Below, piece by piece: positions 37,414 through 60,500 of a stretch of 64,000 bases of DNA (position 1 is the stretch's first letter; each line of letters starts with the position of its first letter). The position numbers and the translations under genes were made by a program. The notes under the pieces were generated by a model. That model saw nothing but the letters and a program-made list of their open reading frames with translations. It searched no databases and was not told where the DNA came from. This stretch comes from Deltaproteobacteria bacterium UBA4427. GTDB taxonomy: Bacteria > Myxococcota_A > UBA9160 > UBA4427. Location: contig DGPZ01000195.1 of NCBI GenBank assembly GCA_002390675.1, positions 67,095 to 131,094 on the forward strand. Reading direction: 5' to 3'.

Positions 37414-37425
37414 GCGAAGTCTAGG

Positions 37426-40231: not shown

Positions 40232-40233
40232 AG

Positions 40234-42399: not shown

Positions 42400-42634
42400 T
42401 CGTTCCGCCTAGCGCCTAACTGGGATGAAGCTCTGCGGGAAGTGCATCGAATCCGTAAAGCGTGTTGTTGTTTGAAATGATGGGCTTGCCGGGAATTCCA
42501 TCGCCTCGAATTTTCCGCGACCGATGACGCTATAGACGCATTCCTCTGCTTGTTCGCGGATCCTATCGCGCAGGCTCTCGAGGGCGCGGGGGCGCATGGG
42601 GGCCTGGGTAGCCGGGGTCCTTTAAGTCCCGCGA

Positions 42635-43486
42635 TCAGATGCGCTTCGCCCATTCGCGGCGAATAAAATCGTGGCCCTCGCGCGCAAGCGTCTCTTCGTC
42701 TTCGAACATCTGACGCCAAATCTTGGTCGCAGCAGCCAGGGAGGGCAGGGTGCCGCCAAAAGCTTCGATGGTTAGCCATCCGTCGTAGCCGCTCTGGACG
42801 AGGGCGTCGAAGGTGCTGTCCCAGGCAACCTGGCCACGCCCGGGGGTACTTCGATCATTCTCTGAAATGTGTACGTGTGTGATCGCGTCCGCATGGGTGC
42901 GGATTGCGTGGGGTGAATCTTTTTCTTCGATGTGGGCGTGGAACGTGTCATAGTGGATTCCGACGTTAGGCCGGTCCAACTCCTTCACGTACCTGGCAGT
43001 GTCTTCGGTTGAATTGAGCAGGTAGATCTCGAATCGATTGAGGAATTCGAAACTCAGCTTAATGTTCGCGCGGGCAGCGTAATCGGCGACACCGCCTATC
43101 ACCGAGAGGCTGCGTTCCCATTCAGCTTCGGTTGCGCCGGCGCCACTGAATTGCCCGATTGCGGCGTAGAGTGGTCCGCCAAGGAGAGAGGATCCGACGG
43201 CTTCGCAGCTGTCCACGACGCGCTCGAGTCGCTCGCTCGCAGCTTTCCGGATGGAGGCGTCTGGAGAAATGGGGTCGTTCTCGGGATTGCAGATGGTGAT
43301 CGCAGTTCGCTCGAGTCCAAGGTCGTCTAGTCGTGCGCCGAGCTGCGCGAATTTCTCTGGATCCGGATTAAAGATCGGCAACTCGATGCCATCGAAGCCC
43401 ATATCCTTCAAACGGGCGTAGAGCGGTAGGTGGGCCTCATCGGCCGGGTCATCGGTCCAGAGGAAAAGATTCATTCCGACCTTCAT
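42635..43486 (-). CDS. sugar phosphate isomerase/epimerase (xylose-isomerase-like TIM barrel)
   Basis: MKVGMNLFLWTD...GFDGIELP...HVHISENDRSTPGRG. GGAG RBS precedes ATG 43486. Confidence 0.85.
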   Translation of the reverse strand: MKVGMNLFLWTDDPADEAHLPLYARLKDMGFDGIELPIFNPDPEKFAQLGARLDDLGLERTAITICNPENDPISPDASIRKAASERLERVVDSCEAVGSSLLGGPLYAAIGQFSGAGATEAEWERSLSVIGGVADYAARANIKLSFEFLNRFEIYLLNSTEDTARYVKELDRPNVGIHYDTFHAHIEEKDSPHAIRTHADAITHVHISENDRSTPGRGQVAWDSTFDALVQSGYDGWLTIEAFGGTLPSLAAATKIWRQMFEDEETLAREGHDFIRREWAKRI

Positions 43487-43543
43487 AGGAGCTCCTGTGT
43501 GCTGGGGTTCGCTTGCTCTCGGATGAGACTCTACACTTCCTCG

Positions 43544-43822
43544 ATGCGGATCAGTTTTTATGCGACGCTCCGAAAAATCGTCGGACAGAAACATGTCGAG
43601 ATCGATTTACCAGAAACGTGCACGCTTGAGCAGATTCTCGAGGCTGTGGTCGCCGCCTATCCAGACCTGCGAGAAGAGGTCCTCGACGAGGATGGAAAGC
43701 TCGACCGCTACATCCATCTTTTCGTGGATGGGCGTAGTTCGAAGTTTCTTCCGGATGGAATCGCGACCAAAGTCGACGCATCCCGCACGATCGAGTTCTT
43801 CCCCGCTGTCGCGGGTGGTTAG
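43544..43822 (+). CDS. MoaD/ThiS-family ubiquitin-like sulfur-carrier protein
   Basis: 92 aa, ending ...IEFFPAVAGG-stop (C-terminal GG). Convergent with the AOR gene. Confidence 0.8.
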   Translation: MRISFYATLRKIVGQKHVEIDLPETCTLEQILEAVVAAYPDLREEVLDEDGKLDRYIHLFVDGRSSKFLPDGIATKVDASRTIEFFPAVAGG

Positions 43823-43837
43823 GGCATTGCGACGAGC

Positions 43838-45652
43838 TTAGGGAATTTGAAGCTCATCGAGTTTCGCCTGGGGAACGACGCCGTTCTTCCAGCCGCGGAC
43901 GTCGTAGTATTCGACAAGCATCTGGTCGAGTTCAGAAACATGGCCCTTGGAGCCGGAGAGCGTTGAAGCTTCCTCGGTGAAGCGCTTTGGCAAGGTGTCG
44001 CTGCCTTCGCCGAAGCCAGCCAAGTTGTTGTAGTAGCGCTCGAGATTGTAGACGCGCTCCCCCGCCTGCATGACGTCTTCGGCGGTGCACTCAATCCCCA
44101 TGGCGCCGCTCCACTGAGCAGCATACTCGTCCGCGCCCTGCGCGAATGCGCTGAACTTGCAGAGGTCTAGGCTGTCGGAGAAGGCTGCGAGGTCCTGGAA
44201 AATCATGACTAGTTCGCCTTTGCCTCTCCATTCAAGCGGGTCCGCTTCGATGCCAACCACTCCGAGTTCCGCTGCTGCGACATACGCGCGCAGATGGCAG
44301 GCGCCGCGATTACTCGTCGCATAACCCAGTCCCATACCCTTGAGTCCCCGGGGGTCATAGGCCGCAACCGCTTGGCCCTTGCAGGCCATCGCCGCTTCGG
44401 GACGTCCGAAATTCTGAGCCGTGATGACGGCCCCGTCTGCGAGCTTGTCCCCGATGCCTTCTCGGAGCGCGAGCTTTTCAGTCAGCGCCACCATGGCCGC
44501 ATCGTCGCCCCAATCGAGCGATTCCCCGTTAGTTAGGCCTTTTTCGGTGCACTCCATGAAGACGGAATAGACATTGCCGAGTTCGATCGGGTCGAGGCCG
44601 TAGTCGTTGCACTGATCGATCAGCTTCGCGACCGAGCGAATATCATCGACGTCGCAATTCGAGCCCAGCGCCCAGGCCGGCTCGTATTCGACACTTTCCA
44701 TCTTTAGGCCTTTCCACGGGCCGTCTTTGATCTCGACTTCCTTCTTACAGGCGACGGGGCAGGCGTGACACGTCGGGTTTCCTACAAGGATATTTTCCTC
44801 GACGTATTCGCCGGAGAGGGACTCTGCGCGCTCGCCGAAGGAAGTGAGCTGGCTATTCCGGACGCCTAACGCGCCGATACTATTAGTGACGTTCATGAGC
44901 ACATTCGTGCCGTAGACCGAAAGCCCTCCTTTTTTGGGGCTCGTGATATTTTTCTCGTCGCGGATTGTGTTGAGTGCCAATTTTCGAGCGGCTTGCCAGG
45001 CATCCTTGTCCGGGACATCGCTCTTCTTGTTGGCTGCGCGAACGATGATCGCCTTGAGGTTCTTGCTACCACCGACGGCACCGGTGCCGCCGCGACCAAA
45101 GGCTCGATCATCTTCGTTGACCCAAGCGGCGAAGCGGGAGAGATTTTCGCCGGCCTGGCCGATGGCGTTGATGGAGAGATTCTTTTTTCCGTAGCGTTCC
45201 TGATAGAAGGCAACAGTTTCATGGATGCCCATGCCCCAGGTGTCACTGGCATCACGAATCGAAATTTCGCCGTCTTCGATGAACACATAGACGGGTGCAT
45301 CGGCTCGACCTTCAAAAATAAGGCCATCGAATCCAGCCCAGCGGACCCGTGCCGCGCTCCAGCCACCCTGATGGCTATCCGTCACCGTATTCGTGAGCGG
45401 ACTCTTGGTGACCGCGGCCCATCGGCCACTCATGCTCATCTCGCTTCCGGAGAGCGGGCCGTTCATGAAGCAGAGGATATTTTCCGGGGAGAGCGGCTCG
45501 ACGTTGGGGCCGTTCTCAAGGACATAACGTACACCGAGCCCGCGTGCGCCGATATATTTCTCAACCCACTCGGGCGGGGCGGGACGATTCTCGACGGTTC
45601 CCTCGGAGAGATTGATATGAGCGATGTCGCGTCCAAAGGTCCTGGCGTCCAT
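43838..45652 (-). CDS. aldehyde:ferredoxin oxidoreductase family (tungsto/molybdopterin) enzyme
   Basis: 604 aa from ATG 45652 (AGGAGA RBS). N-terminal AOR domain IAHINLSEGTVENRP...GARGLG, and 4Fe-4S ligands CHACPVAC. Confidence 0.9.
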   Translation of the reverse strand: MDARTFGRDIAHINLSEGTVENRPAPPEWVEKYIGARGLGVRYVLENGPNVEPLSPENILCFMNGPLSGSEMSMSGRWAAVTKSPLTNTVTDSHQGGWSAARVRWAGFDGLIFEGRADAPVYVFIEDGEISIRDASDTWGMGIHETVAFYQERYGKKNLSINAIGQAGENLSRFAAWVNEDDRAFGRGGTGAVGGSKNLKAIIVRAANKKSDVPDKDAWQAARKLALNTIRDEKNITSPKKGGLSVYGTNVLMNVTNSIGALGVRNSQLTSFGERAESLSGEYVEENILVGNPTCHACPVACKKEVEIKDGPWKGLKMESVEYEPAWALGSNCDVDDIRSVAKLIDQCNDYGLDPIELGNVYSVFMECTEKGLTNGESLDWGDDAAMVALTEKLALREGIGDKLADGAVITAQNFGRPEAAMACKGQAVAAYDPRGLKGMGLGYATSNRGACHLRAYVAAAELGVVGIEADPLEWRGKGELVMIFQDLAAFSDSLDLCKFSAFAQGADEYAAQWSGAMGIECTAEDVMQAGERVYNLERYYNNLAGFGEGSDTLPKRFTEEASTLSGSKGHVSELDQMLVEYYDVRGWKNGVVPQAKLDELQIP

Positions 45653-45769
45653 GATTCGATGATCTCCTAATGGGATTGACTGAAAAGCGAAACAGGATCC
45701 CGCCAAAGGGCTCCGGTCCTCTATTCTAGACCGATCGAGTGGCATTCCGGAAGTCAATCCGCAGGGAGT

Positions 45770-46141
45770 TTGGGTGTGGGCAGCAGAGATCTGAGAGATG
45801 GACCTGAGGCAGCGTTCGCAGCCTATCTCAAGCGCCATGCATCCAACGATCTGGAGGGCGTCCTTGAGTTATTCTCAGCCTCCGCCGTGGTCGAAGATCC
45901 CGTGGGCACGCCGGCCTGGACGGGTCTTGCGGCAATCCGGTCCTTCTATTCGGGGACTTATCTCCGGAACGGGACTATGCGGGTCGATCCAGTAGGCCCA
46001 GCGCTCGTCGGCGGCTTTGAGTTAGTGGCACACGTGCGTGCTGCGTTGGACGCGCCGGGGAGTCCTCCGGCGATGGACGTAATTTATGTCATTCGTTTTG
46101 CTGCGGATGGGAAAATCGAAAGTCTCCGGGCCTGGTATTAA
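45770..46141 (+). CDS. SnoaL / ketosteroid-isomerase-like (NTF2 fold) protein
   Basis: 123 aa. The pattern AAFAAYLKRHASNDLEGVLELFSASAVVEDPVG fits this fold. Confidence 0.65.
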   Translation: MGVGSRDLRDGPEAAFAAYLKRHASNDLEGVLELFSASAVVEDPVGTPAWTGLAAIRSFYSGTYLRNGTMRVDPVGPALVGGFELVAHVRAALDAPGSPPAMDVIYVIRFAADGKIESLRAWY

Positions 46142-46213
46142 GCTACTCCGGGGCAGGCGATTGCGGGATCAGGCCGGCTTTTCCGCGTCTATAGAGTCGG
46201 CGAAGGAATGCGA

Positions 46214-46288
46214 ATGGAGAGGTTGGGAATCGTTGTAGCTGTCGTTGGCGGCTTCTTCATTGGATTGCCACTACTCATTTCGCTTTAG
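46214..46288 (+). CDS. possible 24-aa hydrophobic micropeptide
   Basis: MERLGIVVAVVGGFFIGLPLLISL, with GAAGGAA 6-7 nt upstream. There is no other support. Confidence 0.2.
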   Translation: MERLGIVVAVVGGFFIGLPLLISL

Positions 46289-46506
46289 GCGCGAATGATA
46301 AATCCCGACGTGGCGCAGGACGTGTACGCGAATCCGACGGGAGAGCCCGCGGCGAAAGTTAGGTTATTGACCCTGCCGAGCGCTCGGAGGATCCCTTTCG
46401 CCCCAATGCCGTTCCTGGATTCGGAACGTTGATCGATTTCCTGCTCGATCCGGAAGATCGTCCGGGCTTCGTTCGATAGGCGCCTCATGAGTGGCCTAAT
46501 AGATAG

Positions 46507-47556
46507 TCAGATCTCTCTTGCGCGGGCTGTTGCCTGCTTGAGCATTCCGTCGATTCGCTGGCGAACGATGTCGCCCTGGCCTCCGCCCGCAAGTCCTCCG
46601 CCCGCACCTGCCCGAAGCCGCGCGGCGACGCCTTCGAGGAGACACGCCATCTTCCACCAGCTGAACGTTTCGTAGTAGGCGAGGGCCGAAAGATCGAAGC
46701 CTGACCGTTCCGTGTAGAGCGCGATCGCATCTTCTCGTCGGGGGAAGGCGGGATGGCGAGTCGGGGAGGGCGATCCGAAATCGTGTTCTTCGTCGGGATT
46801 CGTCCAGTAGAGGACGGACCATACGAAGTCGGCGACGGGATCTCCTAAGGTGCAAAGTTCCCAGTCGAGCACGGCGATGATTCGCTGGTCGGGTCCGAGG
46901 ACCGTATTGTCGAAGCGGTAGTCGCCGTGGACCAGGCCGCATGCTTGTTGCGCGGGTACGGATTTCAAGAGCTGTTCGTGGAGTTCGTAGATTTGCGGTG
47001 TTCCCGCTTGGCCTTCAGGAATCGACGCTTCGAATTGCCTGAGCCAGCGCGCGAGTTGCCGCTCTACATAGGCTTCCTTGCGGCCAAGGTCGCCTAGTCC
47101 CACCGCATCTACGTCGAGCTTTGCCATAGCGACCTGAACATCGATCAAGGATTCGGCTGCGCGTCGACACTGCGACTCGTCGAGTCCCTTTGCTTCCTCG
47201 GGGCCGCGTAAGATGAGTCCGTCCGCAAAGCCCATCACGTAGAATTCGGCCCCATTGACCGCATCGTCGTCGCAGAAGGCAACCGCTTTGGGTACGGGAA
47301 TGCCGCATTCTGGATGCGCGGCGAGCGCCGAGATGATTTTCCATTCGCGACTCATCTCGTGGGCGGTCGCAATCCGCGCTCGTTCAGGCGGTCGCCGTAG
47401 CGCCCATCGCGTGCCGTCTTCCCGCGTCACGATATAGGTGAGATTAGAGCCGCCGGCGGCGACTAACTCGAAGGTGAGTGGACCTTGAGCTTCAGGAATA
47501 TTTGTGTGGAGCCAGTCTGTGACGGAAGGGGCATCGAGACCTCTGAGTTCGGTCAT
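46507..47556 (-). CDS. phosphotransferase (APH / choline-kinase-like) family protein
   Basis: GGSNLTYIV nucleotide loop and catalytic LVHGDYRFDNTVL. The start was trimmed from 47793 to ATG 47556. Confidence 0.85.
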   Translation of the reverse strand: MTELRGLDAPSVTDWLHTNIPEAQGPLTFELVAAGGSNLTYIVTREDGTRWALRRPPERARIATAHEMSREWKIISALAAHPECGIPVPKAVAFCDDDAVNGAEFYVMGFADGLILRGPEEAKGLDESQCRRAAESLIDVQVAMAKLDVDAVGLGDLGRKEAYVERQLARWLRQFEASIPEGQAGTPQIYELHEQLLKSVPAQQACGLVHGDYRFDNTVLGPDQRIIAVLDWELCTLGDPVADFVWSVLYWTNPDEEHDFGSPSPTRHPAFPRREDAIALYTERSGFDLSALAYYETFSWWKMACLLEGVAARLRAGAGGGLAGGGQGDIVRQRIDGMLKQATARAREI

Positions 47557-47638
47557 GTCTTGTCTTTCGTGGTAGCCATTATTTTGTGGATTAGATTGGC
47601 GATGTGGCGTTACGGCGTCGTAGGTCGAGGCGCGGTTC

Positions 47639-48559
47639 TTAGAACCCGCTTGTCGGTTCGTCGGGGTTAAGCGCGGCTCCGAGTGCCGCGTTGTAGATCT
47701 GGAAGGAGAGACCCGCTGTACGTGGATCAAGGGGGGGGGCGCCATGATAGGCGCCCGGGCAGTTGTAGAGCTCGACAGGGATGCCCGCGGCAAGCAGCTT
47801 TAAGCCGTACTCGATCCCTTCGTCTCGAAGCGGATCGAGACCGTTCGTCTGGATGAAGGCCGGGGGGAGATCCTCAAAGTTTTCCGCCCTCGCCGGGGCT
47901 GCATAGGGCGAAGTTGAGGACCGATCGTAGTCCTCTCCGAGATAGTGAAGCCACATCCCTACCGCGGCCACGGAATTGAAGCCCGGCGTGTCCGCACCGG
48001 ATTGGGCCATGGAAGGCGTCTCCATGCGGTCGTCGGTCACCGGGATAAGAAGCGCTTGGTAGGCGATTTTGGGGCCCCCGCGATCGCGCACCATCATGGC
48101 GAGTGCGGCGGTGAGGGCACCTCCGGCACTGCCCCCGGTGACGACCAGGCGGTTTAGGTCGATGCCTAGTTCATCCGCGTTCTTCCCGACCCATTGCAGA
48201 GCGGCATAACAATCGTCCGGTGCCGCGGGGAAGGGATGTTCTGGTGCCAATCGATAGTCGACGGAAACGACGACGCAGCCATGGCCCAGAGCCCAGTTGG
48301 CTTCCATGCCAGCAAAGGACTCGGGGTGCATGATGCAGAACGCGCCGCCGTGAATGTGGAACAGGATCGGTAGTCGTCCTTCTAGGGCGCGAGGTCGATA
48401 GACTACGACGCGGACGTCGGGCTCGCCCGTAGGGCCGGGGACGAAACGTTCGCCGATCTCGAGCTCGGAGTGGTGCCTATCCGTTAGCTCGAGGCCAGGC
48501 ATAGGCTCTTCGGGCAAGTTGCGGTCGGGAATCGGGAGCAGTTCATGGGCGCGGGACAT
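47639..48559 (-). CDS. alpha/beta hydrolase, hormone-sensitive-lipase-like esterase
   Basis: Oxyanion HGGAF and nucleophile elbow GGSAGG. Confidence 0.9.
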   Translation of the reverse strand: MSRAHELLPIPDRNLPEEPMPGLELTDRHHSELEIGERFVPGPTGEPDVRVVVYRPRALEGRLPILFHIHGGAFCIMHPESFAGMEANWALGHGCVVVSVDYRLAPEHPFPAAPDDCYAALQWVGKNADELGIDLNRLVVTGGSAGGALTAALAMMVRDRGGPKIAYQALLIPVTDDRMETPSMAQSGADTPGFNSVAAVGMWLHYLGEDYDRSSTSPYAAPARAENFEDLPPAFIQTNGLDPLRDEGIEYGLKLLAAGIPVELYNCPGAYHGAPPLDPRTAGLSFQIYNAALGAALNPDEPTSGF

Positions 48560-48879
48560 GTTTGTACCTCCGGCTCGATCCTATCACGCTTACGCGATCT
48601 TCTTCCGGGAGAGATCGAGAGAGTTGCCAGCAATTATAATCATCTCTTTGAATAACCGACGCTCTTCTACGTGGTTGTCTTGATGATTGCTGTGCTCGGC
48701 GAAGCTGATTCGCTCTTTGTTACCTGCGCATCGGCATTCACGCCTTTACGGATCACTCATTCCTGTGTGCAAGCGACCGGCGATATCGTGATGGTGTGCT
48801 TTTCACTATTGTTTGCGAGCTGGCTTGCGCTCGCGACCATGGTTGTGCGCGCGCGTGCGAGCCTTCTAGCTCGATGCGC

Positions 48880-49677
48880 CTAACGGCACGAGTACCCGCC
48901 GTCGACCGGAAGCGTGTGTCCCGTGATGAAGGACGCGGCATCGCTCGATAGGAATACCGCTGCCGTTGCGATTTCATCCGCTTGGCCGAGACGGCCCATC
49001 GGATGGAGCTGCTCGTATTCGTGCTGGACCTGCAGATCCTCGCGCAACAATGAGGTCATAGGCGTTTCGATATAGCCGGGGGCGACGGCGTTTACGCGAA
49101 CGCCAAGCTTGGCGTACGAAATCGCGAACTGAGCTGTCATGCCGACGACAGCATGCTTTGACGCGATATAAGCGATGCCCCCGCCTTCGGTCATAGAAGC
49201 GGGGCCCCCTTCGGAATGGTCGGAAAGAGGTGAGACGAGGCCTTGCAGGCCGGCGATCGAGGCGGTGTTGACGATCGCGCCTCCGCCACGCTCCGCCAAG
49301 AGAGTCGCTCCGTGCTTGAGGCCGTAGTAGACGCCGTTCTGGTTGACTTCGATGGTCTGTTGATAGTCGTCGCCGCCGACGCCCGCATTATTGAAGAGGA
49401 TGTCGAACCCACCGAGGGCGTCGATGGTTTGTATGAGGCTTTTTTCGACCGCGCTTTCGTCGGTCACGTCGAGTCCTAGGGAAGCGGCGTTCCCGCCGTC
49501 GGCAAGGATCGACTCGCTTGTTTGTTTCGCGCCGTCGGCGTCGATGTCCGCGCACATGACGCGGGCTCCGGCTTCGGCATAACGGCGCGCGGCCGCACGG
49601 CCAATACCGGAGGCCGCTCCTGTGACGAGGGCGACGCGGTCGGTGAGATCTATGGTCGGAGATGGGATTGGCATCAT
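48880..49677 (-). CDS. SDR-family oxidoreductase
   Basis: TGAASGIGRA, NNAG, and YIASKHAVVGMT. The start overlaps the NifU-like gene's stop by 4 nt. Confidence 0.9.
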   Translation of the reverse strand: MMPIPSPTIDLTDRVALVTGAASGIGRAAARRYAEAGARVMCADIDADGAKQTSESILADGGNAASLGLDVTDESAVEKSLIQTIDALGGFDILFNNAGVGGDDYQQTIEVNQNGVYYGLKHGATLLAERGGGAIVNTASIAGLQGLVSPLSDHSEGGPASMTEGGGIAYIASKHAVVGMTAQFAISYAKLGVRVNAVAPGYIETPMTSLLREDLQVQHEYEQLHPMGRLGQADEIATAAVFLSSDAASFITGHTLPVDGGYSCR

Positions 49678-49919
49678 GATTCCTTTTCAGTTTCGACTTC
49701 GACGCGCAATACGTCGTCGCTCAGTCCTTTGAGCATGTCATGCATCATGGCGCCGAGTGCTTCCGGCTCCATCACGCACTCCGCGCATTCTTCGTTCACT
49801 CCAGGTCGATAGCTCACGCGCAGCACACCGCCGTCGAATTCGCAGAGACGAACCTGTCCGCCATCGGGTTTAACGATCTCGTTGAATTGCTCGACAACTT
49901 GTTGCACGGCTTCTGACAT
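49674..49919 (-). CDS. NifU-like (C-terminal-domain type) CxxC protein
   Basis: 81 aa. The layout ...PDGGQVRLCEFDGGVLRVSYRPGVNEECAECVMEPEALGAMMHDML resembles the Nfu/NifU C-domain with its CxxC. Confidence 0.65.
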   Translation of the reverse strand: MSEAVQQVVEQFNEIVKPDGGQVRLCEFDGGVLRVSYRPGVNEECAECVMEPEALGAMMHDMLKGLSDDVLRVEVETEKES

Positions 49920-49977
49920 GGCTCTTCCTATATTTTATTTCGAGCTCGGAGCAATGGTAGACGGAGTTTCTGGAGGT

Positions 49978-50541
49978 TCAGCTCGTCAGACGGGCACGCA
50001 CTTTGGGAGCAACCTCTCGTGCCAGATCGCGAATTTCATCTTGATTCCAGATGGCTGTCGGAATGGCCGGGTAGTCGATCAGGATGAACTCAAAATCAGG
50101 CACTCCCGATAGTCGAGCCATCGCTTGGGCAGAGCCCTCGACGGCTTTGTGGATGATGGCGGCGGTCGGAATACCCGCCCACTCGAGCTCGATCGCGTCG
50201 CGCAAACTGCGCGCAGAGCAGCTGCCTCAACCCCCGAAGCCGGCGATTGCCAGCGAGGTCTCCGAGGTGAGCCGAGCCCAATCCGGTCCCTCTGGCGCGA
50301 CGGAGACACTCGGCTTCAGCACACGCACCGCGGCGAGGGTGTCGTCTGCGCTCGTGAGCTCCCCGTACACGGCGTCGAGGAAGGACTTGGATTCACCGAG
50401 TCCATTGGCCACGAGGCCGAGTACATGCCCCGAAAGCGAAGCGACGCGGGCGGGAAGCGCCCGGTCGTCTTTGCGCTCGAGGGGGCCGCTCGTAGGATCG
50501 AGGGCGATCAGTGTTTTTTCGTCCATGGCTAATTCCTTCAT
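49978..50541 (-). CDS. UGSC-motif selenoprotein candidate, second copy (in-frame TGA 50229..50227)
   Basis: Track ORFs 50227..50541 and 49978..50205 are the same frame separated only by a TGA. Joined, they read ...SLAIAGFGG-U-GSCSARSLRDAIELEW... A stem-loop lies 13 nt after the UGA. ATG 50526 (AAGGAA RBS) may be the true start. Confidence 0.8.
50199..50213 (-). promoter_or_regulatory. SECIS-like stem-loop downstream of UGA (locus 2)
   Basis: The mRNA reads UGA-GGCAGCUGCUCUG-CGCGCA-GUU-UGCGCG: a 6-bp GC-rich stem and a GU-containing triloop. Confidence 0.5.
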
Positions 50542-50587
50542 GAAGTTGACGGAAATATTGGCTTTCCGGCGACGGCTAATGTGCGTA

Positions 50588-51589
50588 TTAGTTCGGTACG
50601 TCGATCGCTTCTGTTATGGCGACAGCGAGGTGTGGCAACAAGACCCAAGTCTGAGCCATGCCGTCGCCGCCGGCCGCAGCAATCAGAATTCCGTCCTTGC
50701 GCGGGATCCCGACGATTCGTCCAGTCGGCCCCGGGTCTTCTGCGAACCGGGGGAAGAGGTAGTCGCGCATGTCTTCTTTTGACCAACCGGCACGGTCGAA
50801 ATAGCGGCGATGTTCTGGGCCGACGACGAGCATCACGTTGGCGTCGTCGCCGACGAAGTCGTCCCCTGCAATTCCGTTCTGCCTAAGAGTGTGGAGCATC
50901 GAATCGAGCAGGGCTTCCGGGGTGCGGGAGGTGAAGTCGATCGTCGAGGTCACGGTCATGACGGAGTGAACAGTGACTGTGCTCTGAGCAAGTTGATAGC
51001 CACGTTCGACGTGGAGAGGCGTCCAGTCGCTCTCTTCTTCGTTCTCACCAAAACAGAAGCTGAAGCGATGGGGACTCGAAAAACTTGCGCGGTCCAGTAC
51101 ACCGGGGATGGCGCGACACACGTTGCGAATCACGAGGCGGAGTGCGCGTCCGATTGTGGCGTTGGCGCGGAAGCCCGGGCCCATGCATCCAGCACCGCAT
51201 TCGATGCCAATTCTCGTTCTAATGGGGCCATTGACTAACACGGTCTGTACTGCACCGGACAGCGTGCCGGTCGTGCTATGGCAGTTACCCTTCTCGTGGA
51301 GGTGCGCGCGAAGGGCGGCCACGACGACGGGGAAAAATTCGGGGCGGCAACCCGCCATCACTGCATTAATGGCGGCGTGTTCAGCCGTGACCCGAACTTC
51401 GCGGGTTGGGACTTCACCCAGGAGGAGATCTGGGGCCAGGCCCGCTTCCGCGAGGAAGGCTTCGACGCGATCCGGCGTAGGGGCGACGATCGGGAGACCG
51501 TCGGTCCAACCCTGTGCGTGGTACTGCTCTTGGAGATCTTCTTCGCTGCGGTAGCTATGGCTGGGTGCAGCGAGTGTGGTTGATGACAT
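50588..51589 (-). CDS. uncharacterised conserved protein, partner of the UGSC gene (paralog of 28432..29553)
   Basis: 333 aa with a GGAGGG RBS. Carries the blocks WTDGLPIVAPT, AVMAGCRP and GPGFRANATIGRALRLV, shared with the locus-1 partner. Confidence 0.8.
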   Translation of the reverse strand: MSSTTLAAPSHSYRSEEDLQEQYHAQGWTDGLPIVAPTPDRVEAFLAEAGLAPDLLLGEVPTREVRVTAEHAAINAVMAGCRPEFFPVVVAALRAHLHEKGNCHSTTGTLSGAVQTVLVNGPIRTRIGIECGAGCMGPGFRANATIGRALRLVIRNVCRAIPGVLDRASFSSPHRFSFCFGENEEESDWTPLHVERGYQLAQSTVTVHSVMTVTSTIDFTSRTPEALLDSMLHTLRQNGIAGDDFVGDDANVMLVVGPEHRRYFDRAGWSKEDMRDYLFPRFAEDPGPTGRIVGIPRKDGILIAAAGGDGMAQTWVLLPHLAVAITEAIDVPN

Positions 51590-51678
51590 AGGCCCTCCAT
51601 GAATGACCTTTCCACAAAATGGCGAAGCTGACCAGCGCTACCGGATTGGGAGTCGCGGTATGACTTCAGAGGATACCC

Positions 51679-53130
51679 GTGCGACGATTCGGTACTAAGA
51701 CCGTATCCCGCGGTGCCGGAGCCCTAGTGATCTCATTAAGTGCGTTTACGAGCCGATTTCTGTTTTTGATGGCTTTCGGATCGCTTCTGTTTATTTTCGG
51801 AGGCTGCGCAATGCTCGCTCAGTCGGGCGACGAGGATGAGATGTTGAAGGGGGCCGCAGCCGATGAAGTGGACCCCGCGATCTACACAGCGATCAATGAC
51901 CCAAACGATCCCTACGGCTATAAATACGCTGAATTCAGGGAGCGCCGCGAACGCGACATGGCGGATCCTGATTCGCCGCGGCCCCTTCCGCGCTACGGCG
52001 CGCGTCATCAAACGACGGGGACGCCATGGGGCGATTTGGAAAATCTGTTCCCAATCGATTGGGACGGGCTTCGAGAGTCGACACCGAAGCGTGTCGAGCA
52101 GCTTAAAGGCGCGATGCGCTTGCGGGTGGCCTTCGATCATCCCGATCTCAAAATCAGTCAGCTGGTGCTTGGACCAGAGGCCGTCCTGCCGGGGCATGCC
52201 GATGGCGCCCCGGGTGCGTATATCGTGATCTCGGGGCGCGGAGAGATTCGTGTCGGGAGCGAAAACGCTCGCGTGACGACGGGATCTACAGTGAAGCTCG
52301 AGCCTTATGTCGTGCGAAGTTTGAAAGCCTCGGCGGAGGAACCTCTTCGTTTGTTGTGGATCCGTTGGGCTCCGGGAGGCGACCAGTCGTATGTTGATGC
52401 TGGCTACTACCTAACAGGCGCGAATCAGCATATTCAGCCCGAGCAGGCGAAATTCGAAGACGGCTATCTTTTCTGGGGCGGAGTGGATGAGGCCTATGGT
52501 CCCGTCGAAACTGCTGTGAACCCCACGCCTTCGGGAGCGGTTCCGGTATACGCTGATGCGGCGGTCGGTCTTCGCGCAGCGAAAGCGACCTTCAATGCGA
52601 ATGAGCCGCTCTATCCCGGCGTTTCCGTGTTTGCGCACGACAGCAAAATTTCTTGGCTTTCGGCCGAGACTCTTAAGAAGGGCGGATTCTTTTTCTCGGA
52701 TGATCTTGGCTCGCTCTTGGACGTCGCGGAGCAGATGATTCAGATCGCGCGTCACAAGGCGATTTTTCGAGCAAGCCGGCCCGATGGGCGTTGGGATTTT
52801 AACTTCTCTGAATCTGCGTGGGGCGCGCGGTCGACCTATGTCGAACATAGTCACGTGATTCCCGAATTCTACTATGTGTTAAGCGGCCCCGTAATCTACG
52901 GAGTCGATGGCGAACGGTATGAGAGCATGCCTGGCGATATCCTTTTCAATAATAGCTACTCGCCGCATCTCGCCCAGGGGATCGTTGAGGGCCTCGTCTT
53001 TCGTTCCTTCTCGTCGACCTTCGCGCCGAATGGCGACCGAAGTGTCTTTGAACGCCCCTATTTCATGATCGAGCCTCTGACCGATCAAGCTGCGGGATCG
53101 GTGCTTCCCGACGGCATCGAGTTCCACTGA
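51679..53130 (+). CDS. bicupin lipoprotein
   Basis: Lipobox LLFIFGGC. Two cupin-like cores: LPGHADGAPGAYIVISGRGEIRVG and HSHVIPEFYYVLSGPVIYGVDGERYESMPGDILF. Confidence 0.7.
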   Translation: MRRFGTKTVSRGAGALVISLSAFTSRFLFLMAFGSLLFIFGGCAMLAQSGDEDEMLKGAAADEVDPAIYTAINDPNDPYGYKYAEFRERRERDMADPDSPRPLPRYGARHQTTGTPWGDLENLFPIDWDGLRESTPKRVEQLKGAMRLRVAFDHPDLKISQLVLGPEAVLPGHADGAPGAYIVISGRGEIRVGSENARVTTGSTVKLEPYVVRSLKASAEEPLRLLWIRWAPGGDQSYVDAGYYLTGANQHIQPEQAKFEDGYLFWGGVDEAYGPVETAVNPTPSGAVPVYADAAVGLRAAKATFNANEPLYPGVSVFAHDSKISWLSAETLKKGGFFFSDDLGSLLDVAEQMIQIARHKAIFRASRPDGRWDFNFSESAWGARSTYVEHSHVIPEFYYVLSGPVIYGVDGERYESMPGDILFNNSYSPHLAQGIVEGLVFRSFSSTFAPNGDRSVFERPYFMIEPLTDQAAGSVLPDGIEFH

Positions 53131-53166
53131 TACGTAGACTCATTCGCGAAAAGGCCAGATCTCTCG

Positions 53167-54066
53167 ATGAACCGCTTACCGACCACAGTAGATGGACTCC
53201 GGAAAGTACTTGCGGGCTTCGCAACCCGTGAGGGCATGCTCGCGGGGCTTTCGTTTCGGCCGCGGCCGACGGACGTGTTCATAGCTACCTTCGCGAAAAG
53301 CGGAACGACGCTCTTGCAGCAGATCGTGCATGGGCTGCGCACGGGGGGCGATATGGACTTCGAAGACATCTCGGAAGTCGTTCCTTGGATTGAGATGGCC
53401 GTCGATACAGGGATCGATGCGACGGCTTCACAGCGCGCCGAGCCGCGTGCCTTCAAGACCCATCTCGACTGGGGTGCTTTGCCGAAGGGAGGCCGCGCGA
53501 TTTGGGTTGTCCGAGATCCTGAATCCGTGATCGTCTCGCATTACCACTTCTTTTCGGGCTGGTTTTTCGAACCCGGCAGTATTGGGTTTGAAGAGTTCGC
53601 GCTGGACTTCGTTCTGTCCCGCGATGGCCGACATCAGTATTGGGATCACCTCGTCTCGTGGTGGGCGCACAAGGACGATCCCGAGGTGCTGCCACTTTGC
53701 TATGAGACGGTGGTCGAGGATCTTGCTGTTGCGGTTCAACAAGTGAGCGATTTCTTGGATCTTGCTTGCGATGAACAGAGAATCGAACTTGCGACGCGCC
53801 AAGCTGAGCTCGATTTTATGAAGGGGTACCCGACGCTCTGGGAGGATGTTCTTCTTAGGAGGCACCGTAACTCCGCGATGAACCTGCCAGAGGGTGCAGG
53901 CAGCACGAAGGTTCGCGAGGGAAAAACCTTGGGGCCCCGGGCCGAGATGACGCCAGCGGTTCGAGAGGCGTGGACGTCGCGATGGAACGAAATCGTGACT
54001 CCGGCCACGGGATGCGAGGACTACCCGGCTCTTCGGCGGGCGATGAAAAGCTCTACTGAGAGCTAG
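53167..54066 (+). CDS. sulfotransferase-domain protein
   Basis: PAPS loop ATFAKSGTTLLQQIV, followed by KTHL and the RDP...VS region. Confidence 0.85.
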   Translation: MNRLPTTVDGLRKVLAGFATREGMLAGLSFRPRPTDVFIATFAKSGTTLLQQIVHGLRTGGDMDFEDISEVVPWIEMAVDTGIDATASQRAEPRAFKTHLDWGALPKGGRAIWVVRDPESVIVSHYHFFSGWFFEPGSIGFEEFALDFVLSRDGRHQYWDHLVSWWAHKDDPEVLPLCYETVVEDLAVAVQQVSDFLDLACDEQRIELATRQAELDFMKGYPTLWEDVLLRRHRNSAMNLPEGAGSTKVREGKTLGPRAEMTPAVREAWTSRWNEIVTPATGCEDYPALRRAMKSSTES

Positions 54067-54102
54067 TCGAAGCGTCTATGCTCACGCTTTCCCTGAGCCG
54101 GA

Positions 54103-55371
54103 GTGTTCTTGTCCCCGAATTCGAATGATGACCCAAATCCCTCCGAGACGGAGGTGTCCGCAAGTGGGACGGCGCAAGCAATAGCGACCTTTCGGTTGCC
54201 GCATTACGGGATGCTCTGGTCCTCGAACCTAATCCAGTTCATTTGTTTCCACGTGCTCTTCTTGGCGATGCAGTGGTTGGTGACCTCGCTAACCGATCTG
54301 CGCATAGCGGTGGGCTTCTTAGCGTTCGTGCAAGGCGGAACAATCGCGCTCGCATCGCCCTTTGCAGGCGTGATCGTCGATCGCCATCCAAAGCGGAACC
54401 TAATGATCTTTGGCCGACTAGGTGTCGCCGTGGTTGCAATATCCATGGGACTTCTGTCCTACGGCGGTTTGATCGAATACTGGCATCTGCTGGTGATGGC
54501 GATCGTTGGGGGCACCTTAGCGGCGCTCTTAGGCCCGGCGGCGCAGACCTATGTCGTGGACGTTGTGGGCCGCAAACGAACCGATCACGCAATTTCGCTG
54601 AACGCGATCGGAGGCTCCGTCGGGACGATAGGCGGCGCCGCGCTTGCAGGGCTTTTGATCAAGGAACTTGGTGTCGTGTCGACGTATTTCGCGGCCGCGG
54701 CCGGCGTCGTTCTGGCGGGACTATTGCTGCTTACGATCCCCATTCCGGGGCATGCCGAACGGAAGGAGCGCACCTCGCTGCGATCAGATCTGGTTGAGGG
54801 CCTCGCATATGTTAGGGCACGCCCGCATCTGCTATTGGCGCTCGCGGCTTGTGCGATGGCGCTCTTCAATGGAGCGATCAGCCCGATGCGGGTGATCTAT
54901 GCTCGGCATGTCTTTGGGGCGGGTGCGGATGCGTTCGGCATGATGTCCGTGTTTCACGGAGGCGGCACCATGCTCGCGGCTCTTTTCCTGACGCTGCGGC
55001 CGCCGAGTCGAAATTTCGGCGTGCTGATCACAGGGACTATGCTGCTCTACGCGCTCGGCGTCCTGATGTATTCCTTCGCGTTCTCGTTCGAATACATCCT
55101 GGCAGTCGAGTTCTGGCTCGGCATTTCCGGGCAGGCGTGGCATATATGCGCACTGATCGGGTTCCAGCTCGCGGTCCCCGAGGAAATGCGGGGCCGCGTA
55201 TTGAGTATGGTGTTCACCCTCGCTCAGCTTGGCTTTGTGGGGGGATTCATAGTAGGTGGCCTGGCTGACCAGCTCGGCGATCAGGTTGCAGTTGGCGTAT
55301 TTGGAGCGATTCCAACGATCCTGCTCTCCTGCATGCTGGTCTTTGGATGGAAGAGCTTGCGCAAGATGTGA
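54103..55371 (+). CDS. MFS transporter
   Basis: About 12 TM helices, with a D-R-x-x-K-R-like loop (VDRHPKRNL) between TM2 and TM3. Confidence 0.85.
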   Translation: MFLSPNSNDDPNPSETEVSASGTAQAIATFRLPHYGMLWSSNLIQFICFHVLFLAMQWLVTSLTDLRIAVGFLAFVQGGTIALASPFAGVIVDRHPKRNLMIFGRLGVAVVAISMGLLSYGGLIEYWHLLVMAIVGGTLAALLGPAAQTYVVDVVGRKRTDHAISLNAIGGSVGTIGGAALAGLLIKELGVVSTYFAAAAGVVLAGLLLLTIPIPGHAERKERTSLRSDLVEGLAYVRARPHLLLALAACAMALFNGAISPMRVIYARHVFGAGADAFGMMSVFHGGGTMLAALFLTLRPPSRNFGVLITGTMLLYALGVLMYSFAFSFEYILAVEFWLGISGQAWHICALIGFQLAVPEEMRGRVLSMVFTLAQLGFVGGFIVGGLADQLGDQVAVGVFGAIPTILLSCMLVFGWKSLRKM

Positions 55372-55402
55372 TTGAGTTTGAGCCGGATGAAATCGCGAGT
55401 TG

Positions 55403-56281
55403 TTAGTCCGAATCCTTGATTGCTGAGGCATCTCCTAGAGTCACGCGGGTGCCGTCGGTTTTTTCGACCCAGACATCACAATGGACACGGGTCTCGGTGC
55501 CTTCGGGAGTTTCGTCCCGCACGCGGGCATGGGCCGTCACGGTTTCATCGACCCAAAGAACGTTGGTGAGCTTGACGGACATTCGCCCACCCGCGAGCCA
55601 GCCCATTCCGAAGTGATCCTGCATGACTTGGGAGATAAAGCAGGTTGACATCATGCCTTGGACTACGATGGTCGGGAAGCCAAGCTTCTTCGCCTCTTCC
55701 CGGTCCGTGTGATAGTTCTTGGCCGGTCCCGAGAACATCCAACAGCGTCGATCGTCGATGACTTTCTCGACGGAGCCTAGGTCGGGACCTTCGGTGGTAG
55801 GGAAGGGCGGTCGAGTGGGCTTCTTGGCGGCACTCTTTTCGTCGACAACGAATCCGCCGACCTCCTGATCATCCTTCGGAGGAAGGAAGGACTGAAATGT
55901 GCGGCCGCGCACGAGCAGCTTTCCCTCTTCGCCGGGTTCGTCGCTCATGAGGTCGGTCTCGTTAACGACCCAGTCGCGACCGCGGCGTGAATAACGGTCG
56001 ATGATCGTGGATCGTGTCCGGACGCGAGAGCCTATGGGGATCGGTGCGAACATCGACCAGTCCTGTTGGCCGTGGAGGTTTCCGAACAGATTCGCGAGAT
56101 ACCAGTCGCCGACAAACTCGTAGCATTCAGAATGATGAAGCAGAGGCGGCGCATAACGCTCATGAAGCGGATGTTCGTCACCGAGAGCACTTTGATAAAA
56201 AGCGACAGTCTCTTTGTCGATGGTGTAGATGTTCGAGCCGCAGTGTTTGCCAACGAGTGCCGGTTCGCCTTTGATGTTCAT
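55403..56281 (-). CDS. MaoC-family (double hot-dog) dehydratase
   Basis: 292 aa. N-terminal hot-dog with DEHPLH, and C-terminal FPTIVVQGMMSTCFISQVM. Confidence 0.8.
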   Translation of the reverse strand: MNIKGEPALVGKHCGSNIYTIDKETVAFYQSALGDEHPLHERYAPPLLHHSECYEFVGDWYLANLFGNLHGQQDWSMFAPIPIGSRVRTRSTIIDRYSRRGRDWVVNETDLMSDEPGEEGKLLVRGRTFQSFLPPKDDQEVGGFVVDEKSAAKKPTRPPFPTTEGPDLGSVEKVIDDRRCWMFSGPAKNYHTDREEAKKLGFPTIVVQGMMSTCFISQVMQDHFGMGWLAGGRMSVKLTNVLWVDETVTAHARVRDETPEGTETRVHCDVWVEKTDGTRVTLGDASAIKDSD

Positions 56282-56319
56282 GGAGGTCCCTCGCGTTCTG
56301 GAATGGTCGGGTTTACGGA

Positions 56320-57378
56320 CTAGCGAAGATGGCTGAAGAGTTCGCCCCGCACCTTTGGGTTGCTGAGCTTCCAGATTGCGCCGTCGATGAAGTAGTGATG
56401 AATCGCGACGCAGGCGATAAATCCCCGAAACAGCAGGCGTGCCGTATCGTTCGAATACCAGCCTTCACCAAGGGCCATCGCCGCGAGTGGCGGTCCGTGA
56501 AGAAAGATCCCGCCGGCGAGAGCGATCCCAGCGAAGGTGAGCGCTACATGGCGACGAATCTGCGAGGGCGAGCGCGGTTCATCCGATGACGCCGAATATC
56601 GATTCGCTTCGATCCGCAGAGGGAACGCTAGGTATTGCAGCGCGTGCGAGATCTGCACCCAGAGAAATCCGCCCGGGACGAAATACCAGAACGGATACCA
56701 GATATAGAGTGCGAGCCAGGGGAAGATGATGCGAGGGGACAAGCTCTGCCCTCGTCGTGCGGCGGAGACAAAGGCCCAGCCCCCCGCGAAGAGGCTGAGT
56801 ATTGCCATGCCGACAATCCCTTGGAAAACGACCCCGTAGGCGGCGATATAGCGGGCGGGCTCGATCCACTCTGCGGGTGGAAGCCGACCGGATAGCGAGA
56901 AGAGCACGTGCAGAGCGAGCAGGATCCGCATTCCGCCGCGGATCGCGTAACGCTCGTTTTGGGTGAACTTGACGCCAAGGATCCGACCGAAGGCGGAGAC
57001 CATGCCCCAGGCTTGACCTGTGTAGTGCCAGGCCAGATAGACGGAGCTCGCGAAGACGAGATTCTGGATGATTTCGTTGCGGGCGAAACCTACTGCGGCG
57101 ATTGCGAGAATACCTAGGAGCGCGACCGGGACAAAGATTGCGGACCAGCGATTGAGCAACACCTCTTCGCGAGAGACGTAGAGGAGTCGGTAGGATGCCA
57201 TGAAATGGGTCGAATTGATGAGCACCATCAACACGATCCAGTCGCCATCCACAAACTCGAGGGACCCGCCCCAAGCTGCCCACCAAAGCAGAAGTAATCC
57301 CATCGCGAAGGTCGATAGGCCGCCGGTAATGACCAGGTCGAGAGTGGGTGTCGTGATCGAGGGCGAGCGTACTTGCAT
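56320..57378 (-). CDS. polytopic membrane protein of unknown function with four His motifs
   Basis: About 9 TM helices. His-containing motifs NSTHFMASY, LAWHYTGQAWG, QISHALQYLAFP and AIHHYFIDGAIWKL. No family recognised. Confidence 0.7.
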   Translation of the reverse strand: MQVRSPSITTPTLDLVITGGLSTFAMGLLLLWWAAWGGSLEFVDGDWIVLMVLINSTHFMASYRLLYVSREEVLLNRWSAIFVPVALLGILAIAAVGFARNEIIQNLVFASSVYLAWHYTGQAWGMVSAFGRILGVKFTQNERYAIRGGMRILLALHVLFSLSGRLPPAEWIEPARYIAAYGVVFQGIVGMAILSLFAGGWAFVSAARRGQSLSPRIIFPWLALYIWYPFWYFVPGGFLWVQISHALQYLAFPLRIEANRYSASSDEPRSPSQIRRHVALTFAGIALAGGIFLHGPPLAAMALGEGWYSNDTARLLFRGFIACVAIHHYFIDGAIWKLSNPKVRGELFSHLR

Positions 57379-57523
57379 AGTGGAGCACCAGTCTAGCGAA
57401 CTTGGCTCCGCGCCCAGGCTGGGCCTACTTCTTCTGCGCTTCGACCTTCTTTCGATACTAAGTGGCTCGTTCCCGCCAGAAATGACAGAGCTCGCAAACG
57501 GTCACAATGTCGATCGGAGGCTG

Positions 57524-60500
57524 CTATTTCGCGAGCTCGCGAATCTTGATGTTCCGAAACCAAACGGGGTCGCCGTGGTCTTGCAACACGATGTGGCCGG
57601 ACCGGGCGCGCCCGAATCCTTCCGTGCCATCGAATTTGCTCGCGGCTATGGCTTCGTCCCAGGCTGGGCTGCCGCGTACGATGTCGGCGAGGAGGACGTC
57701 ATTCAGCCAATGCTGGAGGCGTTCGCCTTCGACTCGGATACGCGCGGTATTCCATTCACCTACTGGACGCGCCGCAGCCTGTGCGAAGGATTGCAGATCG
57801 TAGAGATCGCCCGCGCGATGCAAATCGATCTGACCATCGGGATGTGCGGCGTCATCCAAGACCTGCATCTCGACTGCGTAATCCCAGGAGAGCGAACTTT
57901 CTTCGTTGGGGACCAGGTAGAAGATGCCGCTATTGCCGCCGGCAGAGATGCGCCAATCGATCGCGAGTTCGAAGTCGCTGAATTTTTCGCGGGTCATGAG
58001 GTCGATCGCGCCCGGCGTAAAGGGATTGATGTGATTCCAGATAAGACCCGCGAACGAAACATCCCGCGTGAAGTGAAACGCTTCGTCGTCGATCTCCCAA
58101 TACGGGGTCGCATCGTCCTTGGCGCCGTAAATTTTCCACCCTTCGAAGTTCTCACCATCAAATAACAGGCGCCAACCCATTTTCCGCTCCTCGTCGCTGA
58201 GCTGGTTGGCAGTCGCAGGCAGTTCGTCATTCAGGTCCGAGGAGACATCGTTAGGCGGAATGGCGTTGACGGTGTACCAGGCCTCACGAACCCAGAGCGT
58301 CTCTCCCGATTCGGACCGAATGGACTCGGGGAGTCGTAGGTAGACGATGCGATCCGTTTTCAGGTCGGGCACAACGAGGCGGAGCTGCTTCCGATCTTCG
58401 GAAAGCCGCACATGCGTAATTGAGAGGTCTCGGAGATCGTATTTGGGCCCGCCATAGATCTGGGACGGGATGTAGAACCAATCGCGCAAGACGATGTCCG
58501 AAGCCGCGAGTTCGCCCTCCTTTGCGAGAGGCCTCGTGAATTCGATCTCAAAACCATCCGACTGGATCGACATACGTAGGGGCTCGAAGGCTTTGTCTTG
58601 ACCCATGTCGACGATTTCGATCCCGAAATGGCGTTTATCCGATTCGCCCCAATTGCCATGGCTACCGACCTGGCCGACGACGAATCCGTCGCCCTCGGGC
58701 TTCGCGAGCAGACGATTGACCGGGCCTAAGAGTCCAGCAGAAAAGTGGAATGCGGCTCCTTGCATAGTGTCGTCGATTCGTTCGAGAGCGGCGCGCTTAA
58801 GGCCACCGTTGTAGATGTCGCCGAAGATGACCTGTCCCGCGTAGGGGCCTCGGGTGAGGAAGAGGGGCTCGGTCGGGGAGTTGCCGATTTCACTTTGAGG
58901 GAGCCAGAGTGCTGGGGGTGAAACTTCTTCGTCGGAGATCTCGACGCCGGGCCCGCGCCATCCGTAGTGCCGGCCCTTTTCCACATGAATGAGCTTGCTC
59001 GAGGGTAGCCAGTCGCCTTGATTATCTGTTGCGAAGAGTTCCCCGTCCGGCGAGAAGCCGAGGCCATTGGGTGTGCGAAAGCCCGATGCGAGATACTCGA
59101 TTGCTTTAGGTTGATTCTCATCTTCGTCGAGCGCCACGCGAAAAACGCGACCCCGCGCCGAGGTCTGTTCGCGGCAGCTCTTGCCTCCGTTCAGGACACA
59201 GGCCGAAAGGGAGCCGTAGAGTGCTCCGTCCCGGGCTTCTAGGCCAAAGCCAAATTCGTGAAAGTTGGACGTGACGGGCCAATCGTTCGCGACGGTCCGG
59301 TACTCATCGATCCAATCGTCTCCGTTGTGATCGAGGAGGCGAGTCACCTCGTGCTTTTGCATGACGTAGATGCCGTCGTCGACGACCGCGAGCCCGAGCG
59401 GCTCGTGGAGACCTTCTGCTATTCGAACGATGCTCGGGGACGCTTTCGGATCTGCCCAGCCGTCGATGGCGAAGACCGCGCCGTCGGGATCCCAAGTCGA
59501 CACGCCGAGGCGCCCGTCCGGAAGCCAGGCGAGCCCGCCCACCAGAGGAGTGAAGTCGGGGGATTTGATTTCGTGGGACCGGAGGCTCGGGTGTAGTGAT
59601 TCCGGAGGAGCCAATGAGTCTCCGCGGAAGCTCCAAGTCGCCTCGGCGCCATCGGTCTCTGCGGGGCTCGTGGGGGCATCTGCCGGAGGTGTGTCGAGGA
59701 TGCTCCTCGCGAGAGTCGCGGCCACTTCGAGTGAAATGTCAGGATGGGCCGGCATCTCTGCTCCGCCCCAGCGACCTTTGCTGCCTTCGCGAATGCGTAT
59801 GGCGAGCATCTTCGTTGCGATGTCTCGATTGGACCCGGTTTCGCGGAGAGCAACTTCGCTCCAAGCCGGACCGACGATCCGCTCTCGAGTGCTGTGACAG
59901 GTGCTGCAGTCGTAGTCGGCGAAGAGAGAGGCGGCGGCAGTGAGCTGATCGGGCGGCGCTAAGTCGACCATCGCGCCGGCGAAGTCCCTACGGATCGACG
60001 CGTTCTTGATCTTAGGCGGGAAGACATAGAGATCTTCTCGCTTCGTTAGGCCCATTGTCGTGGCAGGGGTGAGAATTATGTTATTCAGGATGAGCGCAAC
60101 GGGAGGCCCATCTGTAATTTCGAATCGCCGGGTTAGCGTGGCGCCCGGGAGTTTGACTGCAATTTCTCGTTCCGGCCATTCTGTGATCGTTCGTTTCGGC
60201 CCGTTGGGAGCGAATACGTCGAAGCGAATCCAAAGCGCATCGCCGTCGGGCGAGAACCCGTGCCCTCGCCACTGAATCTCCGCGGGCTTCCATTCTCCTT
60301 CTTGCTGGATGCGCCAGGCGGTTTCCAAAGGGGCACGCAGGTAGGCGCTTCCGCGACTTGTCGGCTCCCGACCATGGCGGGCATCGTAGACCGGGCCTGT
60401 GTAGTCAATGTCACCATTCCAGAATTGATGGATCGATGCAGTCTCTGTGCTGTAGGCGAGCCATAGCTCGGGGGCGAGCGCGGCCGCGAGGATTCTGGGG

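Follow-up and report, generated by a model that had tools for sequence, protein, structure and literature searches.

The minus-strand gene at 49978..50541 of the window (the whole 64-kb stretch of DNA that was analysed), referred to below as locus 2, belongs to the UGSC family and carries an in-frame TGA that most probably specifies selenocysteine (Sec); we put the probability that it is a Sec-encoding UGSC-family gene at about 0.92. Recoding of this TGA had been proposed in a first-pass annotation of the sequence, and the proposal is supported by three sets of observations: TGA and Cys codons alternate at this position among related loci (40 of each), purifying selection continues downstream of the TGA, and a hairpin following it is kept in the TGA forms. 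The gene at locus 2 was thus identified correctly, but it is of a kind already known and not a discovery.

Structure of the locus 2 gene

On the minus strand, the open reading frame 50541..50230 and the frame that continues down to the terminal stop (TGA 49980..49978, 82 codons past the internal TGA) form one gene of 187 codons, whose sole interruption is the TGA at 50229..50227 (Table 1). Its translation reads ...SETSLAIAGFGG-TGA-GSCSARSLRDAIELEWAGIPTAAIIHKAVEGSAQAM...LIDYPAIPT...RARLTS-TGA. Around the internal TGA the minus strand encodes ...AIAGFGG-TGA-GSCSARSLRDAIELEW..., and the residues flanking the predicted Sec are ...LTSETSLAIAGFGG-U-GSCSAR. According to the first-pass annotation, two listed ORFs, 50227..50541 (104 aa) and 49978..50205 (75 aa, TTG start), share a frame, are separated by this TGA alone and constitute a single selenoprotein gene. 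The first part is true, the seven codons from the TGA to TTG 50205 (GSCSARS) being free of stops, and the second is supported by the fit of the joined protein to the UGSC family from end to end. An alternative start, ATG 50526, is preceded by AAGGA at a distance of about 7 nt. Scanning for promoters and terminators gave nothing useful between the partner, UGSC and NifU-like genes.

Table 1. Features of the window that are discussed in the text
Feature	Coordinates	Strand	Remarks
UGSC-family selenoprotein gene (locus 2), complete	49978..50541	-	187 codons from ATG 50541; translation, Pfam PF24696, full-length Cys homologs
In-frame UGA, predicted Sec (U105 of the U-G-S-C motif)	50227..50229	-	TGA/Cys alternation at the codon
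Putative bacterial SECIS	50195..50219	-	RNAalifold consensus; +11..+35
Upper hairpin of the putative SECIS, C17-G31...A22-U26	50213..50199	-	loop G23 U24 U25 at 50207..50205
Partner gene, 333 aa	50588..51589	-	46 nt upstream of the locus 2 UGSC gene; no Pfam/NCBIfam family
NifU/Nfu-like gene, 81 aa, C-A-E-C motif	49674..49919	-	58 nt downstream of the UGSC gene; Pfam NifU 26.4 bits
Locus 1, paralogous UGSC selenoprotein gene	27836..28363	-	TGA 28075..28073; NF041046 125 bits; hairpin with G23 U24 loop
Partner-gene paralog, 382 aa	28432..29580	-	upstream of locus 1; shares 35% identity (E=5e-48) with the 333-aa protein
Tungsten-type aldehyde:ferredoxin oxidoreductase	43838..45838	-	
AhpC/TSA_2 (peroxiredoxin-like) ORF ending in TGA	1350..1910	+	

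Family membership and the paralogous locus

With U replaced by C, the joined locus 2 protein matches Pfam PF24696 ('UGSC family') at 131.1 bits (threshold 25), residues 14-186 spanning profile positions 3-171 of 172. Against NCBIfam NF041046 ('UGSC family (seleno)protein') the same protein scores 86.3 bits. Since this is less than the cut-off of 125, locus 2 falls into a sister clade inside the Pfam family and not into the NF041046 equivalog, and for the same reason the NCBI pipeline would leave its clade unnamed. The N-terminal half alone has no NCBIfam match, and the C-terminal half alone matches the second half of the profile only. Locus 2 displays the features by which the family is recognized, namely, the U/C-G-S-C motif at the conserved column and Cys-containing homologs. 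The signature of its clade is GFGG-U-GSCSARS[LM]RDAIELEW, and 17 full-length sequences all have F102 G103 G104 C105 G106 S107 C108. Searched with a profile, a set of 1.84 billion representative proteins yielded 1,329 members of the UGSC family at E <= 0.001. Permissive Pfam scans of the UGSC and partner families revealed no second family, a sequence-profile search of the PDB with UGSC detected no relative, and a literature search for PF24696 found no papers.

The UGSC family has been known since 2005, and its identification as a selenoprotein family is reportedly due to Zhang, Gladyshev and co-workers. In the GOS metagenomes, the UGSC-containing protein, which has a UxxC motif, was among the most abundant selenoproteins in both marine and freshwater samples (255 Sec versus 21 Cys forms) and was especially frequent in non-marine ones; it was sometimes fused to a domain named Unknown_1 (PMC2398784). 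Reviews from 2022 (PMC9312934) and 2026 (PMC13188914) both list the protein as functionally uncharacterised. Because UGSC is an established selenoprotein family (PMC2398784, PMC9312934, PMC13188914), locus 2 is an added member rather than a novel kind. With the known family it shares the U-G-S-C motif, a size of ~150-190 aa, Sec/Cys alternation, a putative SECIS directly 3′ of the UGA and an environmental (aquatic) distribution, and it differs in belonging to a sister clade (86 bits against the NF041046 cut-off of 125).

The window contains a second gene of this family. A six-frame scan of the 64 kb for '*GSC' returned four sites, two of which are locus 2 and locus 1 (28075..28073); for the protein of locus 1, the NF041046 score equals the cut-off. 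When U is replaced by C in both, the joined proteins of the two loci align without gaps over 126 residues at 28% identity (BLASTP E=1e-12). The first-pass annotation had aligned the paralogs across the stop and in two later blocks, and the full alignment agrees with it: both TGA codons occupy the same column, as do GVATVVVASEAF and GIPTAAIIHKAV, and PHPIGG and DYPAIP.

Alternation of TGA and Cys codons among relatives

The search for protein homologs covered 5.8 billion proteins and yielded two types of sequences: full-length proteins of 180-198 aa with GFGG-C-GSCS, and products of 102-109 aa, all of which end in ...GFGG. Aligned with locus 2, a comparison that had been suggested as a check, the full-length homologs have Cys at the TGA column and the others stop at GFGG. 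At the DNA level, a scan of one genome per species produced 80 related loci; three metagenomic contigs carrying one truncated homolog were also included in the comparison. The codon at the TGA column is TGA in 40 of the related loci and TGC or TGT in the other 40. In every TGA locus the two halves adjoin and share a frame, in every Cys locus they make up a single ORF, and nowhere among the related loci are they found as separately conserved genes, which the first-pass annotation had named as an outcome that would speak against recoding. After the TGA, 82-102 in-frame codons are open in every TGA form except L039, where the contig ends. The TGA forms come from MAGs labelled Myxococcota/Deltaproteobacteria, Dehalococcoidia, a few Acidimicrobiia and three Spirochaetaceae/Spirochaetales, and the Cys forms mostly from Acidimicrobiia or Actinomycetota. 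The protein of one TGA form, L004 (Myxococcota MAG, contig JASDVF010000050.1), is 99% identical to that of locus 2, but the two genes differ at synonymous sites (dS ~0.1); the window thus derives from a close relative of this MAG and from a different assembly.

A conserved hairpin downstream of the TGA

For consensus folding with RNAalifold we took 73 nt from each of 39 distinct TGA forms, beginning 3 nt ahead of the TGA, with the U of UGA numbered +1. The resulting structure is a 6-bp hairpin (+17..+22 / +26..+31) with a 3-nt loop, G23-U24-(U/A)25, and a lower helix formed by +11,+12 and +34,+35, which in locus 2 consists of the two base pairs G11-C35 and C12-G34. G23 and U24 are present in the loop in all 39 TGA forms. 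The cells of the hairpin are paired in 99.7% of cases in these sequences, and shifting the 3′ partner by 1-3 nt reduces the value to 6-74%. The pair +18/+30 is GC in 28 sequences, AU in 6 and CG in 5, and is broken in none; its two bases are the synonymous third positions of an Ala and an Arg codon. Among 38 Cys forms, the helix cells are paired in 76.8% of cases, with no excess over shuffles, and the pairs +18/+30 and +21/+27 are broken in 17 and 24 sequences, respectively. G23 U24 come from a Ser codon, which is AGT in 39/39 TGA forms versus 2/38 Cys forms; the Arg codon preceding it is CGC in 38/39 versus 15/38, and the Asp codon closing the stem is GAC in 38/39 versus 21/38.

Folded alone, the locus 2 hairpin does not exceed shuffled versions of its G+C-rich sequence in stability (z = +0.1 to +2.2), and we therefore refer to it as a putative SECIS on comparative rather than energetic grounds, with one covarying pair in a set of related sequences. 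The hairpin of locus 1 is unlike that of locus 2 in sequence, again has G23 U24 in the loop and folds well (z = -3.6). Virtually no structure (-0.8 kcal/mol) lies 3′ of the terminal TGA of locus 2, so that of the two TGA codons the internal one alone has a hairpin. In Rfam, neither the locus (E <= 10) nor the complete window (gathering thresholds) matched a SECIS or tRNA-Sec family. The E. coli fdhF SECIS has an upper stem-loop in the interval +15..+31, G23/U24 in its loop and a bulged U17 (PMC8659212). The locus 2 hairpin resembles it in being located inside the ORF right 3′ of the UGA and in presenting G23 and U24 in the apical loop, but it has a perfect 6-bp stem with a 3-nt loop and lacks the bulged U17. 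Its nearest unpaired U, mostly conserved, is at +15, in an internal loop before the 2-bp lower helix.

Selection downstream of the TGA and alternative readings

We estimated Nei-Gojobori dN/dS between the window gene and each of the 40 TGA forms, with the segments split at the TGA. Upstream of the TGA the ratio is 0.11-0.51 over all 40 and 0.11-0.18 for the seven closest informative relatives (L005-L011), and downstream it is 0.05-0.33 and 0.05-0.15, respectively; dS for L005-L011 is ~0.9-1.9, and with saturation in most pairs all these ratios are rough. Purifying selection thus continues past the TGA, in line with what the first-pass annotation had expected of this comparison. Constraint on the downstream segment is plainly no weaker than on the upstream one, and a decaying tail is therefore ruled out.

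These data bear directly on the possibility that the TGA is a real stop, in a split or decaying gene giving at most a 104-aa N-terminal fragment and possibly a C-terminal piece from TTG 50205. Public gene callers annotate the TGA forms in just this way, as products of 102-104 aa and 51-79 aa on the same contigs, and Sec machinery is not seen in the 64-kb window: Pfam scans of 40 large ORFs detected no selA, selB or selD, and the window contains no tRNA genes, selC included. However, 40 loci belonging to no fewer than three phyla have retained the TGA and an intact downstream frame although synonymous divergence is saturated (dS > 1), with the low downstream dN/dS given above; the Cys forms are single ORFs; the hairpin is conserved in the TGA forms; and a protein starting at TTG 50205 would lose the invariant GSC motif. 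Termination at this codon is accordingly very improbable.

Marginally less probable still is that the UGA is read through without Sec, either by near-cognate insertion of Trp or Cys or owing to lineage-wide reassignment of UGA. In its favour, half of the family functions with Cys at this position. On the other hand, about one in three of the window's other large ORFs end in TGA, as does locus 2 itself, and for this reason the codon is not reassigned genome-wide; the conserved structure with GU at +23/+24 corresponds to SelB-binding geometry (PMC8659212), and the family is a documented selenoprotein family (PMC2398784). Finally, although MAG-derived sequence can carry errors, nothing specific suggests that the TGA is an error of sequencing or assembly in what is really a Cys-form gene, and this reading is effectively refuted by the recurrence of the TGA in 40 independent assemblies, including the long-read chromosomes OZ253453.1, OZ242299.1 and OZ244810.1, and by its presence in the second paralog, locus 1.

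Recoding of the TGA as Sec is thus the reading that we retain. Two TGA-bearing UGSC paralogs with SECIS-like hairpins in one 64-kb window suggest, indirectly and at the level of sequence, that the organism decodes Sec. When the whole window was scanned for further TGAs lying in frame between open stretches, 122 candidates came up, which were dropped as noise of a G+C-rich genome. Peroxiredoxin-like proteins are a common selenoprotein class, and one AhpC/TSA_2 ORF of the window ends in TGA (Table 1).

Partner gene, neighbours and natural fusions

In 74 of the 80 instances the UGSC gene is adjoined by a co-oriented partner gene, which lies upstream in 35 TGA forms and 4 Cys forms and downstream in 35 Cys forms; the order of the two genes thus varies between clades. 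In the protein database the partner family accounts for over 7,800 homolog clusters, every one of them labelled 'hypothetical'. It matched no model of Pfam or NCBIfam, and a sequence-profile search of the PDB detected no relative. A Foldseek resemblance to the class I fumarate hydratase fold was limited to TM < 0.3 and was discarded as untrustworthy. Strongly conserved motifs in the partner alignment are GWTDGLPVVPPT, NAVMAGC, GNCHSTTGT, GPGxRANATIGRALRL and FCFGENEE. The family is probably identical to the Unknown_1 domain of the 2008 GOS paper.

The small NifU-like gene on the other side of locus 2 scores just below the Pfam NifU threshold of 27 bits, and such a gene follows UGSC in ~19 related TGA-form loci, mostly labelled Myxococcota/Deltaproteobacteria. 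Both neighbours also occur in natural fusions with UGSC: four proteins of 549-630 aa (P0188, P0204, P0274 and P0293) join UGSC to the partner, and two of ~275 aa each (P0205, with a NifU match of 32.4 bits, and P0216) join it to NifU. These fusions mirror the gene order in the window, namely, partner, UGSC, NifU-like. In addition, UGSC is fused to Pyr_redox_2, a thioredoxin-reductase-like flavoprotein (pyridine-nucleotide-disulphide oxidoreductase), in P0315 (502 aa), and a single protein, P0272 (345 aa), joins it to a TetR N-terminal domain. The Pyr_redox_2, NifU-like and TetR fusions are all Cys forms (GDCGSC), none containing Sec. A further candidate, P0050 (152 aa, from a 674-bp ENA contig), in which a glutathione-peroxidase N-terminus precedes a UGSC N-terminal half ending in GMGG, is most likely a chimeric short contig and was rejected.

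Locus 1 is accompanied by a paralog of the partner gene (Table 1). In a Dehalococcoidia MAG from Lake Baikal (L033), two partner+UGSC(TGA) modules, at 2863 and 6283, are ~3.4 kb apart on one contig; duplication of the module into paralogs, as in the window, therefore recurs in another phylum. In a TGA-form clade of Acidimicrobiaceae-like contigs (L001-L003 and L035), the partner is not adjacent and UGSC is located between Amidohydro_2 and SDR genes.

The window as a whole (1..64000) is rich in catabolic oxidoreductases, including three TauD-family dioxygenases, two luciferase-like monooxygenases, a Rieske oxygenase, a P450 and several SDRs, together with two Amidohydro_2 genes; it has no Rfam matches. 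Genes for SDR, Amidohydro_2, TauD, Rieske oxygenase, P450 and aldehyde:ferredoxin oxidoreductase surround locus 2 and offer no specific clue to a substrate.

Predicted fold and proposed mechanism

The AlphaFold2 model of a Cys homolog, P0001, which is 61% identical to the locus 2 protein, has a pLDDT of 90.9 and consists of five parallel beta-alpha units, with Sec/Cys located where strand 3 ends and helix 3 begins. In a Foldseek comparison of this model with the PDB, the best matches were flavodoxin-like or TIR domains, and they were weak (TM 0.4-0.5). Among the best 50 of 1,346 PDB matches (E <= 10), none was described as having a thioredoxin (Trx), peroxiredoxin (Prx) or glutaredoxin fold. 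The UGSC protein is accordingly predicted by the model to be flavodoxin-like and not Trx-like, whereas the 2008 paper considered the fold 'likely' Trx-like (PMC2398784). With the Trx-fold UxxC/CxxU selenoproteins (Trx-like, Prx-like and DsbA-like) UGSC has in common a U-x-x-C redox-type motif at a helix N-terminus and, through P0315, a natural fusion to a Trx-reductase-like flavoprotein; it differs from them in that their core is beta-alpha-beta-alpha-beta-beta-alpha, whereas the UGSC model has five parallel beta-alpha units.

By analogy with established bacterial Sec decoding, the UGA at 50229..50227 would be decoded as Sec by SelB and tRNA-Sec under the direction of the hairpin at +11..+35 inside the coding sequence, with SelB·GTP·Sec-tRNA-Sec binding G23/U24 of the loop as the ribosome reaches the UGA. 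The product would be a ~20-kDa alpha/beta protein of five beta-alpha units with Sec in the turn between strand 3 and helix 3 (G-G-U-G-S-C). Judging from the motif, its position in the fold, synteny and the fusions, U105 and C108, three residues later, may cycle between the selenol/thiol and selenenylsulfide states, and the UGSC protein may serve the adjacent 333-aa protein as a reductant or as a nucleophilic subunit. The small Nfu-like CxxC protein might join the electron path in the locus 2 lineage, and in some lineages a Trx-reductase-like flavoprotein might recycle the U/C pair. Both the redox mechanism and the partnership are proposals drawn from motif, synteny and fusions. Somewhat short of even odds, in our estimate, is the broader proposal that UGSC, rather than being a free-standing Trx-like protein, is the redox subunit of a widespread multi-component enzyme in which the ~330-aa partner would be catalytic and the Nfu-like protein and, in some lineages, a flavoprotein disulfide reductase would complete the path.

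A comparable arrangement is found in D-proline reductase, PrdA/PrdB, where a small UxxC selenoprotein subunit is encoded beside a larger catalytic subunit (PMC11229817), the UxxC motif being carried by PrdB (PMC2398784). PrdA/PrdB and GrdE/GrdB of glycine reductase may be likened to UGSC and its partner in that a small UxxC selenoprotein gene lies next to that of a larger protein. However, UGSC has no sequence or Pfam relation to PF07355, and the partner none to PrdA/GrdE. As the folds of UGSC and PrdA/PrdB are also unrelated, the analogy is architectural only.

Implications for the family

The identification of locus 2 as such is textbook selenoprotein bioinformatics, and the parts of specialist interest are the conserved unannotated partner, the fusions and the predicted non-Trx fold. 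With the clade below the NCBI cut-off and its genes split by gene callers into a ~102-aa stump and a further fragment, counts of Sec use are too low for MAGs of Myxococcota, Dehalococcoidia and some Acidimicrobiia. UGSC ranks with the most abundant environmental selenoproteins, and its near-obligate neighbour, three kinds of natural fusion and predicted non-thioredoxin fold provide experimental handles on it.
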